From contig JACQIB010000002.1 in the NCBI GenBank assembly GCA_016198755.1, positions 32,001-96,000 on the forward strand: 64,000 nucleotides of DNA, given 5' to 3'. Made by a program: the position numbers and the translations under genes. Every line of letters begins with the position of its first letter. Position 1 is the first letter of the stretch. The notes beneath the pieces were generated by a model. That model was not told the origin of the DNA. It saw only the letters and a program-made list of their open reading frames with translations, and did no database searches. This DNA comes from Candidatus Aenigmatarchaeota archaeon. GTDB lineage: Archaea; Aenigmatarchaeota; Aenigmatarchaeia; Aenigmatarchaeales; JACQIB01. Positions 31,792-47,227 of this stretch are shown here, one piece after another.

Positions 31792-32688
31792 TCAGAGCAA
31801 AGTTGTAACAAAAGGTTTCTCACCCACAATTATAGTGTGTTCAAACTGAGCAACCATTCCATTTCCTGTTTCTTTCAGTATCTTGTACGGATAAACTGAA
31901 ACAATAGATGAGAGCTCTTTCAGTGCAAGCTCTGTTTTAACAGAGCCAAATAGCTTCTGAAGCCAGCGTTTTGCAAACGGTAACCTTGCAAAGTCTGTTT
32001 TTCCAAGTTCCATTATTTTTCTGGCTTCCATTGTTCTGACAGGCCTGTCCATTATCCAGCGGAATATTGTTGCAGGATCCACTTCCTTAACCATACCAGC
32101 CCCATTTGTGCAAAAAGGCTCACAAGCATAAACTTTTCCATCATCTATAACACCAGCAGAATTAGTCTTAACATTCTGTATCATAACACCAGCGTGCAGA
32201 TTATACCTTTCAACACCATGCCCAGTCAGGTTTCTAATTGATTTGAACCCAAATTCTTTTGCAACCCCTTCTATTGTCTCTCCAATATCAGCTATCTGAG
32301 TTCCCGGTGTAAACATAGGCAGAGCTGAGGAAAGCATCTTTTTTGCACATACTATTAGTTCATCCTCCCCAGCAGGTCTGACCGTAATGGCAGCATCAGC
32401 TATAAACCCGTCTACATGAGCACCTATATCCAGCTTTACATAATCCGTTTCTTTAACAAAAATCCCATCTCCAACTAATGGACTGTAGTGAGCTGCAATT
32501 TCATTTATGGAAATATTTGCCGGAAAAGCAGGCTTCCCACCCATTTCCACCATTTTTTTCTCCACAGCTTCAGCAATATCAAAAATCATAGCACCTTCCT
32601 TTATCATACCCTTTCCCAATTTCAGAGCTTCAGCAGTTATTCTTCCGGCTTTCTTTAATTTTTCTATCTCTTCAGGCAGCAACACCAT
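31792..32688 (-). CDS. map: Methionine aminopeptidase type II
   Basis: PAFPANIS, AAHYSP, KLDIGAHVDGFIADAA, LTGH, LHAG, CEPF, AQFEHT. Confidence 0.95.
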   Translation of the reverse strand: MVLLPEEIEKLKKAGRITAEALKLGKGMIKEGAMIFDIAEAVEKKMVEMGGKPAFPANISINEIAAHYSPLVGDGIFVKETDYVKLDIGAHVDGFIADAAITVRPAGEDELIVCAKKMLSSALPMFTPGTQIADIGETIEGVAKEFGFKSIRNLTGHGVERYNLHAGVMIQNVKTNSAGVIDDGKVYACEPFCTNGAGMVKEVDPATIFRWIMDRPVRTMEARKIMELGKTDFARLPFAKRWLQKLFGSVKTELALKELSSIVSVYPYKILKETGNGMVAQFEHTIIVGEKPFVTTLL

Positions 32689-42683: not shown

Positions 42684-43370
42684 TTATTTTTTGGCAAATT
42701 TCTTTATAGCCAAAGCTGCCTCTACAGCAACTCCCCATGCAGTATATCCTTTAAGTCCAATCACTTTAGCTCCAAATCCCCTAACAGCATCTTCCATTGC
42801 TGTCCTGTCTTTTGGTTCTTCCTTAAACTCAAACTGCATTTTTTCCCCATGCTCACCGAAAACAAAAGACTTAATTTTATCAGGATTCTTTTTCAGTTCC
42901 TTTCCAAGCAGGTAACGTAGTCTTGCTGTATCTGTTTCAGTGCCTAAAACAAAAACCCTTTCTTTTGGAAAGCCTGAAGCTTTCCTGAACACTTCTGCAA
43001 TCTTGCTGCTCGGGTTTGTTGCAACAAAAACATAAGCTTTAGGAGAAATATCCGGAACAACCTTTGCAATACCCTCTATAATTGATTTGTTCTTCTCAAA
43101 CAGCTGTTCCCTTGTCATTGTTGAAGAGCGGGCTAACCCAGCTGTAACAACAATAAAATCACTACTTTCTATAATTTCAAGTTTATCTGAGCCTGAAATA
43201 ACTGTACTCGGAGAAACCTGTACAGCAGCTCCAGCCAAATCCAAAGCCTCACCTTCAGCAACTCCAGGCACAATATCCTGCAAAACAAGCTCTTCCGGCT
43301 TTACAATATTCAGCACAGCAAATCCAACAGCAGCTCCAACCCTCCCAGAACCAACTATACTTATCTTCAT
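42684..43370 (-). CDS. Shortened LDH-like malate dehydrogenase
   Basis: KISIVGSGRVG, GEALDL, TAGLAR...TREQL, ATNP, DTAR, GEHG. Only 228 aa. Confidence 0.8.
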   Translation of the reverse strand: MKISIVGSGRVGAAVGFAVLNIVKPEELVLQDIVPGVAEGEALDLAGAAVQVSPSTVISGSDKLEIIESSDFIVVTAGLARSSTMTREQLFEKNKSIIEGIAKVVPDISPKAYVFVATNPSSKIAEVFRKASGFPKERVFVLGTETDTARLRYLLGKELKKNPDKIKSFVFGEHGEKMQFEFKEEPKDRTAMEDAVRGFGAKVIGLKGYTAWGVAVEAALAIKKFAKK

Positions 43371-44113: not shown

Positions 44114-44162
44114 TGTATCACAAGCGTTTTAAATATAGGCTGCAGTATTTAATAGGTTTGTT

Positions 44163-44957
44163 ATGGCAATAATGAAAAGGTTGTTTGGTATAAAGAAATC
44201 TAAAATAGCTAGTAAACCTACTCCGAAGCCAAAATCTAAACCAAAGGCTAAAATAACGCACAAAACAGCCCCAAAAGCCAAAATAGTACATAAAAAGCCT
44301 TCTATACCCAGTGTAAAAGTTGAAGTAAAGCAAGCAGCTCCTATATTAGAAGGTATTCCAGATGACAAGGCATTTGAAATGCTAAAAACATCCCATGTGC
44401 CAGTTGTTCCTTTCTTTTCAATTAAAAAAGAGTCTGATATAAAGGAAGCTTTGAAAAAGGTTGGAACTCCAGCCATACTAAAGGTTTATGGTGCGAAAAT
44501 AGCCAACAGGACAGAAGTTGGAGGAGTTGTTTCCGTTTCATCCGAAGCTGAGGCAACAGAAGCTTTTAAAAAACTAATGAAAATAAAGGGTGCAGAAAAA
44601 GTTATTGCACAGAAAGTTCTTACAGGAATAGAAATGATTCTCGGCACAAAATCTGACCAGCAGTTTGGAACAATTGTTTCAGTTGGGTTGGGTGGTGCCT
44701 ATAAGGAAATAATAAAGGATGTTGCATTCCGCGTTGTACCTTTTTCAGATTCTGATGCAGAAGCAATGCTAAAAGAATTAAAAGGTTTTGAAGTTATTGC
44801 TAGTGCAGGCAACAAGATCAATGTTCAAAGCTTAAAGGACAATTTAGTTAAGCTCGGAAAGTTTGCAGTGGAAAACAAGCAGATAAAAAGCTCTACAATA
44901 TTGTTTTTCTGCAATTCTGATGGGTGCTGGGCTTCTGACGTAGTACTTTCAAAATAA
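44163..44957 (+). CDS. ADP-forming acyl-CoA synthetase beta-subunit homolog (ATP-grasp), degenerate, with Lys/Pro-rich N-terminal extension
   Basis: GTPAILKV, TEVGGV, GIEMILG..SDQQFG.IVSVGLGG...IKDVAFR.VP. The conserved HKSD motif reads NRTE. Confidence 0.82.
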   Translation: MAIMKRLFGIKKSKIASKPTPKPKSKPKAKITHKTAPKAKIVHKKPSIPSVKVEVKQAAPILEGIPDDKAFEMLKTSHVPVVPFFSIKKESDIKEALKKVGTPAILKVYGAKIANRTEVGGVVSVSSEAEATEAFKKLMKIKGAEKVIAQKVLTGIEMILGTKSDQQFGTIVSVGLGGAYKEIIKDVAFRVVPFSDSDAEAMLKELKGFEVIASAGNKINVQSLKDNLVKLGKFAVENKQIKSSTILFFCNSDGCWASDVVLSK

Positions 44958-44959
44958 AT

Positions 44960-45172
44960 TTACTGGAAATCCCAGAACTTTTTTTCAAATCCATCAGGCA
45001 CTATACCCAATTCTTCAGAATCTTCCTGCATTTCCCCCTCGCAATTTTGGCAGATTTCATCTGTAACAAGATTTATCCTGAATTTTCCCATATAGGATGC
45101 AAAAACAATTGTTGTTTCTTTCAAAAGAAGCGGATTGTAGAATTGTTGCAGCGGAAAAAGTTCTTTTTGCAT
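44960..45172 (-). CDS. Small hypothetical protein (CxxC, acidic C-terminus)
   Basis: ORF fills the intergenic gap, with TTATAAA about 25 bp upstream of ATG 45172. No family recognised. Confidence 0.4.
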   Translation of the reverse strand: MQKELFPLQQFYNPLLLKETTIVFASYMGKFRINLVTDEICQNCEGEMQEDSEELGIVPDGFEKKFWDFQ

Positions 45173-45279
45173 AAAGGTATTGTGCTGAAAAAGCATTTAT
45201 AACAGCAAAAACAGGATAAAGTAATTTCTGTGCAGTAGGAAATCGCGCATTTTTATTCTACCGCACCGAAAAGCTTCAC

Positions 45280-45861
45280 ATGAAAGCAGAATTATTTCTG
45301 GAATTGCGCAGGCAGGCTGTACATGCCTTTGGAATAGTTGTTGCAATCGGTGTTATGTTCCTTCCACAGGAGGTGTATATAGGAGGGCTTGAATCTGTTC
45401 TGATATTTTTTGTTTTGCTGTCCGTTTACAAGGCAGGCAAGTTTGTATTCATAGGCAGAATTGGAAAATTATTTCTATTGTTTGCAAAAAAGTTTGAGCG
45501 CCCAGGAGAACTGTTGCTGAGAGGTCCAATAATGTTCTTTGCTGGCGCAACAATAACAGCAATAATTTTTCCGAGTGCTGTTGCAGCAGCCGGAATAGCT
45601 GTTTTAGCACTGGGTGATTCAGCTTCCACTATTATTGGAAAAACTTATGGAAAGCATAAAATTCCATGGGAAGGAAACAGAAGCTGGGAAGGCAGCATAG
45701 CTTTCTTCATTTTTGCATTAGCAGCCTGTTTACTCTTCCAAATTCCAGTGCAAAAAGCATTTGCAGCAGCTGTGCTCTCAGCAATTATTGAGACAATCCC
45801 AATATTAGATGATAACCTAACAGTTCCAATAGCTGCTGCTGCAGCAATCCAACTCTTCTAA
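45280..45861 (+). CDS. SEC59/DGK1/VTE5 family CTP-dependent polyprenol (dolichol) kinase
   Basis: ELRRQAVH, ER, LALGDSASTIIG..YG.HK, RSWEGS, DDNLTVP. Confidence 0.88.
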   Translation: MKAELFLELRRQAVHAFGIVVAIGVMFLPQEVYIGGLESVLIFFVLLSVYKAGKFVFIGRIGKLFLLFAKKFERPGELLLRGPIMFFAGATITAIIFPSAVAAAGIAVLALGDSASTIIGKTYGKHKIPWEGNRSWEGSIAFFIFALAACLLFQIPVQKAFAAAVLSAIIETIPILDDNLTVPIAAAAAIQLF

Positions 45862-45910
45862 AGGCAAAAATATATAACACTTAAATAGAAGACCCGCCCA
45901 TAGATTTCTC

Positions 45911-47227
45911 ATGCATGAGCTTGAGAACTTTTTCAATCCAACTTCAGTGGCTGTTATAGGTGCCAGCCATACACCAGGCAAGGTAGGCTATGTTATAGTT
46001 GATAGCCTTAAAAGCTCTTTTCATGGTAAAATATACCCTATAAACCCTTCTGTTACAGAAATATTGGGTTTACCGGCGTATACATCTGTAAATAACGTTA
46101 CAGAGCCAATAGACCTAGCTATAATAGCTGTGCCGGCAGAAACTGTAAATTCTGTTTTAGAAGAGGTTATACAGCACAAAATTAAGTCTGTAATTATAGT
46201 TTCAAGCGGTTTTACAGGCGTTGAAGATAAAGAAAGGTATAAAACACTTGAAAATCTTATTAAGAAGTCAAAAATCCGAGTTATAGGACCTAGCTCCTTG
46301 GGGACCTTTACAAGTAAGCTAGATATGTTCTTTCTGCCAAGAGAAAGGTTCAAAAGACCTCCTGAAGGTTATATAAGCTTTATAAGCCAGTCCGGATCCG
46401 TAGGAGCAATGCTTTTAGACCTTATTTCTTCAGAAGGTGTTGGTATAAGCAAATTTGCTTCTTTTGGAAGCAGAAGTGATGTGTCTGAAATAGAGCTTTT
46501 AGACTATTTAGGAAAGGATTTGCAGACCCGTTGTATAGCTCTGTATATAGAATCCCTGAAAGATGGAAAAGCTTTTATTGAAGTTGCAAAGAAAGTTGTA
46601 AAGACAAAGCCTATTGTTGCACTCAAAGGAGGAAAGGACAGTGCAGAAATATATTCTGCTGCTTTCAAACAAGCCGGAATTATTGAAGCAAAAACAACTG
46701 AGGAATTATTTGATTTTGCAAAGGTTCTTGCAAATCAGCCGCTTCCAGCCTCAAAGAAAATAGCTATTGTAACAGAAGGGAGTGGATTGGGTGTTATTGC
46801 TGCAAATTCTCTTGTTTCCCTTGGGCTTGAGATTGCAGAATTTTCAAAAGAAACAGTAAAACCATTTAAAAATTTAGGATTTACAACACTTCCAAATCCT
46901 GTGGATTTGGGTGGAGAAAGCAATGTTGAGCGCTACCAGAAGGCGTTAGATGCGGTTTTCAAAGACAAGGCTGTCGCAGGAGTTATTTGCATACCTCTTT
47001 TCCAAACACCTTCAATTGAAGATAGTATTGTTGATATTTTAAGAGACTGTAAAATATATGGAAAGCCTCTTATTGTTTGTGCAGCAGGCGGGGAGCACAC
47101 ACAGAAACTCTCAAGAAAACTGGAAGCTGTTGGTATTCCTGTTTATCAGACTCCTGAAAGGGCAGCAAAAGCAATGTCCATCCTTTCTAAACAGCCTGTA
47201 CAGGTTCCAGCTAAAGCCAAAAAGTAA
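45911..47227 (+). CDS. ADP-forming acyl-CoA synthetase alpha-subunit homolog lacking the phospho-His segment
   Basis: FFNPTSVAVIGAS..PGKVG, IYPINP, DLAIIAVPA, ISQSGS, LYIES, NPVDL, TPERA. The SHTG motif is absent. Confidence 0.88.
   Translation: MHELENFFNPTSVAVIGASHTPGKVGYVIVDSLKSSFHGKIYPINPSVTEILGLPAYTSVNNVTEPIDLAIIAVPAETVNSVLEEVIQHKIKSVIIVSSGFTGVEDKERYKTLENLIKKSKIRVIGPSSLGTFTSKLDMFFLPRERFKRPPEGYISFISQSGSVGAMLLDLISSEGVGISKFASFGSRSDVSEIELLDYLGKDLQTRCIALYIESLKDGKAFIEVAKKVVKTKPIVALKGGKDSAEIYSAAFKQAGIIEAKTTEELFDFAKVLANQPLPASKKIAIVTEGSGLGVIAANSLVSLGLEIAEFSKETVKPFKNLGFTTLPNPVDLGGESNVERYQKALDAVFKDKAVAGVICIPLFQTPSIEDSIVDILRDCKIYGKPLIVCAAGGEHTQKLSRKLEAVGIPVYQTPERAAKAMSILSKQPVQVPAKAKK

Follow-up and report, generated by a model that had tools for sequence, protein, structure and literature searches.

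Introduction

Can both subunits of an ATP-yielding enzyme lose the residues that carry its chemistry and still be kept as intact genes? This question is raised by two genes at positions 44163 to 47227 of a 64,000-nucleotide stretch of DNA (the window: positions 32,001 to 96,000 of contig JACQIB010000002.1, assembly GCA_016198755.1) from a Candidatus Aenigmatarchaeota archaeon, which encode homologs of the alpha and beta subunits of the archaeal ADP-forming acyl-CoA synthetase (ACD). An earlier interpretation of the locus, made without database searches and called the sequence-only reading below, had described a full-length pair from which both phosphohistidines are missing, and had taken the coordinated loss as a sign of a selected noncatalytic role. 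We find that both catalytic sites are dismantled, that this state is shared by three assemblies, and that the pair is probably a retained pseudoenzyme, whose folded complex would be kept for a noncatalytic role.

The host is a groundwater archaeon that reaches depths of 10-60x in groundwater samples and has a genome of 0.89 Mb in six contigs, 89% complete; the nearest named relatives of the window's proteins are from Aenigmatarchaeota. Below, W denotes the window's own assembly, E an ENA contig of 31,876 bp, and N an NCBI contig of 116,649 bp. In a normal ACD, the phosphoryl group passes from the nucleotide site of beta to a histidine of beta, then to a histidine on a mobile loop of alpha, and from there to the CoA/acyl site. 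For Nmar_0206 (PDB 8WZU), a swinging loop (S246 to I266) carrying H256 is described as travelling ∼30 Å between two active sites, H535 in the ATP-grasp part takes phosphate from ATP, a sulfate lies at G163, A164, G310, and G311, and the active-site loops are named (PMC11494057). In DddX, a dimethylsulfoniopropionate (DMSP) lyase of the ACD superfamily, the H292A variant was inactive with an unchanged structure (PMC8163506).

Results

Both catalytic sites are dismantled in full-length subunits

The alpha protein matched PF13380 (E = 9e-24) and PF13607 (E = 2e-37), corresponding to the CoA-binding Rossmann domain and two flavodoxin-like CoA-ligase domains, and it scored 391.7 bits on TIGR02717 (386.2 bits in the genome search), under the curated equivalog cut-off of 567. 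We aligned it to PDB entries 2csu, 9y43, 4xyl, and 8wzu and to nine close canonical homologs. As listed in Table 1, the phosphohistidine swinging loop is missing: both the structure and the homolog alignments show a clean in-frame gap of exactly 16 residues in place of xxGxEAVxSHTGxLAGx, as the sequence-only reading had proposed for the His-bearing segment. The protein reads PIVALKGGKDS directly followed by AEIYSAAFKQAG at about 46622-46678, the flanks of the gap being KPIVALKGGKDS upstream and AEIYSAAFKQAG downstream.

The damage extends to site I, where four of the five loops at the power-helix tips are changed (GPNC to GPSS, SQSGA to SQSGS, GNK to GSR, and GGG to GSG) and NPVD is kept. The Asn of GPNC is 99% conserved among 118 homologs, and SS stands at this place in W, E, N, and the related protein P0119; the replacement of GPNCLG by GPSSLG had been spotted in the sequence-only reading. 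The middle Gly of GGG, which is 100% conserved in the same 118 homologs and aligns with the sulfate-contacting G310 of Nmar_0206, is Ser in W and E and Arg in N. Overall, 137 columns show at least 95% conservation across 118 other close homologs; the window alpha differs from the consensus in 27 of them, compared with a median of 1 for a canonical sequence. The idea that the CoA-binding N-domain is well preserved held in part: the Rossmann loop GASxTPGKxG and YPINP are intact, but the conserved SSGFSExG loop is SSGFTGVE in the window and SSLLSDSK in N. The alpha protein ends in PAKAKK.

The beta protein is an ATP-grasp_5 protein (PF13549, E = 1e-32, 113.8 bits against a gathering score of 27.6) that matches PDB 4xyl_B with an E value of 1e-27. 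Alignment bore out the two lesions suggested for it. The position of the second catalytic His is N115 in the window and Asn, Asn, and Ser in W, E, and N, with the surrounding motif differing among the three. The E-x-D-x-N-P motif, in which E, D, N, and P are conserved in 90, 86, 97, and 97% of 29 beta homologs, is replaced in all three dead betas. We take this E-(M/L)-D-(I/L)-N-P motif to be the Mg/nucleotide site, equivalent to LEINPL of SucC.

The pair thus lacks every catalytic ACD feature tested, namely the SHTG loop, the site I loops, the HK[TS]D motif of beta, and its E-x-D-x-N-P motif. With the loop excised, the beta His and E-x-D-x-N-P replaced, and the phosphate- and thiol-site residues of alpha changed, neither half-reaction would be coupled, and by this mechanistic reasoning the pair would make no ATP from acyl-CoA.

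The fold is predicted to persist. In the AlphaFold model of alpha (pLDDT 83, pTM 0.83), a strand (235-239), a short turn, and a helix (245-255) occupy the place of the former loop, and Foldseek gave TM values of 0.89 to 2csu and 0.87 to 4xz3, an ACD1 structure. A complex of alpha with beta residues 60-264, predicted from our own alignments, reached an ipSAE of 0.58 against 0.38 for the best control, which gives weak support to an alpha2beta2 association, although the similar solved complex 4xyl may be remembered by the predictor. In calibration, 58 of 80 solved complexes and 2 of 110 mismatched pairs passed the mark used here, with values of 0.60 or less for 7 of those 80 and for both mismatches. 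The prediction runs shared at least 94% of contacts, with a partner pLDDT of at least 83, and are subject to the same caveat about 4xyl.

By sequence, fold, and tree position, the window pair is an ortholog of the archaeal two-subunit ACD. It shares the two-gene plan of alpha (subdomains 1-2-5) and beta (subdomains 3-4) with ACD1 of Ca. Korarchaeum (4xyl/4xym) and PH0766 of P. horikoshii (2csu); sequence identity is 31-36% with the solved chains and 50-59% with canonical orthologs from Aenigmatarchaeota. It is unlike them in its deleted swinging loop and in the replacement of the beta His, E-x-D-x-N-P, GPNC, and the Gly/Ala residues at the power-helix tips.

The lesions are real and inherited

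We compared the locus with Logan contigs of X1 to X4, four groundwater runs of one study that may be the source of the window assembly. Contigs of X2, X3, and X4 each span all 3,065 bases of 44163-47227 with 0 differences and 0 indels; those of X1 cover it in two pieces, and no indel was seen at the alpha junction in any of the four runs. The samples also contain contigs of other organisms in which the canonical SHTG loop adjoins the shared downstream helix, with loose ends at 46640. We note that canonical ACD alphas of far more abundant organisms in X1 to X4 (depth up to ∼300) match the window only at the 46640-46684 helix, and that low-depth contigs of a related strain in X4 show 15-17 differences per 151 bases and are limited to the beta tail and to the kinase-like gene between the two subunit genes.

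The same His-less pair and the same synteny, which the sequence-only reading had suggested looking for in relatives, were found in both sister assemblies. The contig E trio consists of P0122 (beta), P0154 (kinase-like), and P0190 (alpha), and the contig N trio of P0123, P0155, and P0002 in the same order. The alpha junction reads KGGKDG in E and KGGKEG in N, with GPSS in both; in beta, the His motif reads NRMD and SVTE, and the E-x-D-x-N-P motif TSTIFF and TSTILF, respectively. W, E, and N thus share gene order and lesions at 75-94% protein identity. An assembly error was rejected because the Logan contigs of three runs agree and E and N carry the same lesions. The lesion state is inherited, and is neither an assembly error nor private decay of one genome.

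Nucleotide sequences of the sister copies were not recovered. A search of genome contigs with P0002 returned 76 loci, all at 55% identity or less; a degenerate pattern across the deletion junction gave 0 matches in metagenome contigs; and an alignment of the three dead betas, searched in metagenome contigs, gave 0 confirmed hits.

Loss of the histidines is rare among homologs

Among the best 120 alpha matches, 114 carry SH[TSI]G, 3 have a His in a variant loop, and 1 (P0081) was not resolved by the pattern; the loop is missing only in the window protein and P0002. A His loop is present in 29 of 29 alphas from related GTDB genomes (27 SH.G, 1 STHIG, and 1 MGHIG), and the His is kept in 149 of 150 alpha representatives of 50%-identity clusters, the exception being P0238. 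The second His is kept in 28 of the 29 other beta homologs; P0137 (272 aa) has ASASN in place of HKTD(V)GG. A profile search of the window's own, 89%-complete genome found no second ACD, and a search of the open-access literature found no free-standing dead ACD. Separately, a canonical Aenigmatarchaeota-like alpha, P0203 (894 aa), has an apparent large insertion right after GPNC, which leaves its homology in two stretches; judged by its position, the insertion appears intein-like.

Site I was seemingly remodelled before the loop was lost

In the alpha tree, W, E, and N form one clade, with W and E closest, at a support of 1.0, a stem of 0.34-0.38, and short tips. The nearest sisters of the dead alphas are P0119 and P0204 (support 0.93-0.97; 461-466 aa), which are unlike the dead clade in that they retain the His, although in altered loops (EEHSGH and ETHTGH); no beta partner turned up for either. 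These two share derived states with the dead clade, namely GPSS or GPSC, GSR, R20H (in P0204), and T334G, and P0119 has 12 departures outside the loop in common with it. Because these derived states occur in His-bearing proteins, the remodelling of site I seems to have preceded the loss of the loop. The order suggested is that site I was altered on the ancestral branch with the His still in place and that the loop was then lost, which we infer took place once, in the ancestor of a genus-level Aenigmatarchaeota lineage represented by the three assemblies.

One further loop-less protein was found. P0238 (420 aa) has an intact open reading frame (ORF) in which the loop (14 residues) is gone at the same place, and it has also lost the Rossmann motif, SQSG, GGG, and NPVD, with DQSK and NSRS among its altered motifs. 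It grouped with the dead alphas and their divergent sisters on a branch of length 1.23, and its loss of the loop may be the one shared by W, E, and N or a separate event. All of these placements may suffer from long-branch attraction. The intermediate (P0119 and P0204) and the more eroded (P0238) relatives together provide a time axis.

This history bears on whether the pair is still an enzyme that works by chemistry free of phosphohistidine, for instance a CoA-dependent partial reaction or hydrolysis at the altered site I; beta would then serve as a structural partner. Remodelling of site I in proteins that keep the His suggests that substrate or chemistry changed ahead of the loop loss, all three dead alphas retain the Rossmann CoA-nucleotide motifs, SQSG, and NPVD, and the ACD superfamily has evolved new reactions, as in the DddX DMSP lyase (PMC8163506). 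However, a new active site should be conserved, and here the phosphate-holding residues at the power-helix tips have been replaced and vary from one clade member to another (A163S; G291 to S or R), W and N have dissimilar sequences in the GFSExG loop, and all characterized members described in PMC11494057 and PMC8163506 use the His. We therefore regard a still-active enzyme as very unlikely.

Retention or slow decay

The observation that both ORFs are full length without frameshifts held in all three assemblies: alpha is 438 aa and beta 264 aa in each, with no stop and no gap in 702 codons, low-complexity tail included. When random substitution was simulated to the W-N protein divergence, no stop arose in 5% of runs for alpha and 3.7% for beta. 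Conservation was compared for six proteins (Table 2); three neighbors (a 185-aa protein, an aldo-keto reductase, and a CARDB protein) had no cluster mate at 90% or more. Alpha is about as conserved as the neighboring enzymes and beta is similar to the kinase-like gene, and alpha contains long invariant stretches, such as residues 341-360 with 0 variable sites.

Table 2. Protein identity between assemblies for the dead pair and its neighbors.
Protein	W-E	W-N
Alpha	94.1%	86.1%
Ogg	92.6%	not measured
Arginase family	90.7%	89.5%
MDH-like (malate/lactate dehydrogenase-like)	90.4% (ENA contig, 13,890 bp)	not measured
Kinase-like	87.6%	77.2%
Beta	82.6%	75.4%

Because the proteins are full length and free of indels, and conserved like their neighbors while the old active-site positions drift, we favor the reading that the dead pair is a retained pseudoenzyme. 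Its most probable role, named with low confidence, would be to bind the nucleotide portion of CoA through the preserved Rossmann domain, or to act as a structural or tethering element, as the complex may already have done by way of the ancestral basic tail of beta. Several observations weigh against retention. Only a handful of neighbors could be compared, and beta shows the lowest identities among the six proteins. W, E, and N are close kin and therefore represent one evolutionary event. Moreover, the W-N differences in alpha fall almost evenly over sites, with 17/87, 16/95, 13/116, and 14/135 columns changed from the least to the most conserved class, compared with medians of 0.40, 0.20, 0.083, and 0.007 for the same classes in 317 canonical pairs of equal identity. 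W and N differ in 10.4% of the columns that were formerly at least 95% conserved; among the 317 canonical pairs, the median is 0.7% and the maximum 3.4%. A single loop, GFTGVE in W and LLSDSK in N, accounts for six of the 14 changes in the once-invariant columns. This flattened profile resembles wide relaxation and, taken alone, is hard to tell from slow decay. We read it as constraint lifted from the old catalytic and binding sites with fold and length apparently still held.

Slow decay would mean that catalysis has become dispensable and both genes are drifting to loss, the stop or frameshift merely not having arrived yet. Apart from the flattened profile of alpha, it fits the old motifs that are still changing within the clade (GFTGVE/LLSDSK, GSG/GRG, and NRTE/SVTE) and the far more eroded state of P0238. 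It is harder to reconcile with three lineages that show no stop or indel in 702 codons, including a slippage-prone Lys/Pro tail, with a joint chance of ∼0.002 (0.05 x 0.037, substitutions) of meeting no stop on the W-N path, and with an alpha more conserved than the adjacent membrane enzyme. Useless DNA is also usually deleted from genomes of 0.9 Mb.

The metabolic setting adds a further point on the side of decay: searches of the genome, which is 89% complete, found neither POR_N nor an AMP-forming ACS but did find extra CoA ligases, so the enzyme may be unneeded. Two explanations for the inactivation that draw on this setting were rejected. A tie to the loss of pyruvate:ferredoxin oxidoreductase (POR) showed no clean correlation, since POR_N was likewise not found in 4 of 6 same-family genomes with His-bearing alphas, and a genome-wide tendency to lose catalytic His is contradicted by two His-bearing SucC/SucD-like pairs in the genome, whose SucD-like paralogs both keep GHAGA. 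SucD-like genes occur in only 7 of 60 related genomes, and these pairs may have made ACD catalysis dispensable. One of them, at C3:103662-106477, consists of a SucC-like gene (389 aa), a SucD-like gene (299 aa, GHAGA kept), and a short gene of the citrate synthase family (249 aa, PF00285) in a row, a trio that resembles a split ATP-citrate lyase or citryl-CoA synthetase/lyase and is a possible source of acetyl-CoA. The other, at C5:56554-63637 (353 and 291 aa, His kept), lies among genes that, judged by eye, resemble those of the mevalonate pathway.

On balance, we consider slow decay unlikely. As for the definition of a pseudoenzyme, the catalytic residues are missing, and purifying selection may act on the genes, with indirect support from the lack of stops and indels and from the neighbor-like conservation. 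The proposal that the coordinated loss reflects a selected noncatalytic role is supported in part: both phosphohistidines are gone from intact ORFs that are conserved like their neighbors, but the site profile is flattened.

The pair resembles the His-less modules of Pat/PatZ

Among known systems, the window pair would work most like the His-less ACD modules of Pat/PatZ, the type I/II GNAT proteins. Their nucleoside diphosphate (NDP)-forming acyl-CoA synthetase domains are described as lacking the His, inactive, sensing acetyl-CoA, and needed for activity (PMC8556138). This agrees with the regulatory role given for such domains in the sequence-only reading, and the corresponding loop of E. coli PatZ (9it0) is His-less. 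Like PatZ (9it0/9isq), whose role is noncatalytic (PMC8556138), the window alpha has the ACD fold without the catalytic His. PatZ is unlike the window pair in that it is one chain fused to a GNAT domain, with a His-less loop ∼12 residues longer than the window junction; the window pair is free-standing, two-subunit, and archaeal (DPANN), with no GNAT, an excised loop, and 27% identity to PatZ.

The likeness raises the possibility of a Pat/PatZ-like acetyl-CoA sensor acting in trans on a separately encoded acetyltransferase or other partner. The acetyl-CoA binding of the inactive GNAT-linked domains (PMC8556138), the TM of 0.85 between PatZ and the alpha model, and two GNAT-domain (PF00583) genes elsewhere in the genome, on contig C2, speak for such a sensor. 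However, scans of both ORFs and 14 neighboring ORFs detected no GNAT domain, as the sequence-only reading had stated for the locus, PatZ retains a His-less loop that the window alpha has deleted, and the residues of the acyl/thiol pocket drift. A finely tuned acyl pocket is argued against because the GPNC, SQSGA, GGG, and GFSExG residues are changed and partly still drifting in the clade. We consider a sensor of this kind highly improbable.

The basic tail of beta predates the loss

The Lys/Pro-rich N-terminal tail of beta had been seen as a gain of ∼55 residues, possibly nucleic acid-binding, that accompanied the loss. Comparison with relatives did not bear out this gain. All but one of the 18 closer beta homologs (P0124-P0141) have a tail of at least 50 aa with at least 25% K+R, and 16 of these 17 keep the His; their tails are 50-154 residues long with 25-63% K+R and share the MAxLxxLFGKK start. 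It is also present at the canonical loci L010 (26-300) and L024 (4323-4050, minus strand) and mostly missing in 11 more distant beta homologs. The window tail, ∼65 residues long, is 74% and 63% identical to those of E and N, respectively, without indels; an ESM Atlas look-up of the tail gave no usable match. Judged from this distribution, the basic tail is an ancestral, conserved feature of the order's ACD that predates the loss. Because it is ancestral and present on His-bearing, presumably active enzymes, the tail cannot be interpreted as having evolved for a new role in sensing. Basic C-terminal tails also occur on some Aenigmatarchaeota alphas (P0003).

Organization of the locus

On the plus strand, the order is the ACD beta homolog, a 193-aa membrane protein, the ACD alpha homolog, and a surface protein with a lamin-tail domain (LTD). 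Homologs of the membrane protein are named dolichol kinase (JGI) or SEC59/DGK1/VTE5 (NCBI), with PF01148 in three of them; a Pfam scan of the window protein gave no direct match. In relatives, beta and alpha are likewise one or two small unrelated genes apart, so that an intervening gene is normal and the kinase-like gene is lineage-specific. Upstream of beta, TTTTAAATATA resembles, by eye, the archaeal TATA consensus, and its position fits translation from the first ATG of beta and hence of the N-terminal tail.

The small minus-strand ORF gave no BLASTP matches. It is weakly similar to a Cys-rich ORF of 63 aa that occupies the same position in the relative L010 (local score 49; 500 shuffles gave 24 ± 4.5, and none reached it), with ASYM where the L010 ORF has CPCC and with CQNC kept, and it may be a zinc ribbon minus one Cys pair. 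The surrounding genes encode DNA glycosylases, a helicase-like protein, CARDB and LTD surface proteins, a short MDH-like protein, and an arginase-family protein, and offer no hint to the function of the dead pair. The MDH-like gene (42684-43370, minus strand) encodes 228 aa, with an Ldh_1_C match over 101 of 174 profile positions and GEHG kept; the short form is taken as real because a 231-aa copy, 90.4% identical, exists in another assembly.

Table 1. Features of the dead ACD locus in window coordinates.
Feature	Position	Strand	Remarks
TATA-box-like element TTTTAAATATA	44127..44137	+	26-36 nt upstream of the beta ATG; by eye
ACD beta homolog (ATP-grasp, subdomains 3-4)	44163..44957	+	264 aa, catalytically dead; PF13549, PDB 4xyl_B
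Basic Lys/Pro-rich N-tail of beta, residues 1-65	44163..44357	+	conserved start MAxLxxLFGKK
NRTEVGGV, former second phosphohistidine motif HK(T/S)D(V/L)GG	44505..44528	+	aligns with H535 of Nmar_0206
K-S-S-T-I-L-F, former E-x-D-x-N-P-(L/V) motif	44886..44906	+	beta homolog alignment
Small ORF between beta and the kinase-like gene	44960..45196	-	78 aa; weak likeness to an L010 ORF
SEC59/DGK1/VTE5 (dolichol/polyprenol kinase-like) family membrane protein	45280..45861	+	193 aa; homolog names/Pfam marks
ACD alpha homolog (subdomains 1, 2, 5)	45911..47227	+	438 aa, catalytically dead; CoA_binding and Succ_CoA_lig
GPSSLG in place of GPNCxG	46286..46303	+	aligns with active-site loop P128-C130 of Nmar_0206
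Junction K242-D-S-A245, phosphohistidine swinging loop missing	46634..46645	+	alignments, alpha model
G290-S291-G292 replacing GGG, tip of second power helix (phosphate site)	46778..46786	+	homolog alignment

Discussion

What the complex would have been kept for may be sought in the ancestral enzyme. One conjecture is that the ACD of Aenigmatarchaeota already had a second, nonenzymatic job before catalysis was lost, carried by the order-wide beta tail, for example as a membrane or nucleic acid tether. We hold this to be quite unlikely, but if it is true, the genus keeps only the second job, and the locus is a natural separation-of-function mutant that would expose moonlighting of a DPANN energy enzyme. 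The relatives would then form a graded series, from canonical enzymes through an altered site I with the His (P0119 and P0204) and the loop-less W, E, and N to the eroded P0238.

Whichever job the pair may have, its state is of use to studies of pseudoenzymes. His-less ACD modules are otherwise described, in PMC8556138, as domains fused to acetyltransferases. Here, the sites of both subunits are dismantled together and the genes are intact in a 0.9-Mb genome, a clean case for work on pseudoenzyme retention.

The finding also bears on how DPANN archaea are thought to gain energy. Homologs of the pair are named ADP-forming acetate-CoA ligase in their source annotations, and this step is the usual substrate-level source of ATP assigned to DPANN in metabolic reconstructions. 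Because the pair is dead and a search of the genome, 89% complete, revealed no other ACD, that assignment would be wrong for this lineage. A dead pair of this kind should not be counted as an energy-yielding step, which calls for caution in metabolic reconstructions of DPANN.

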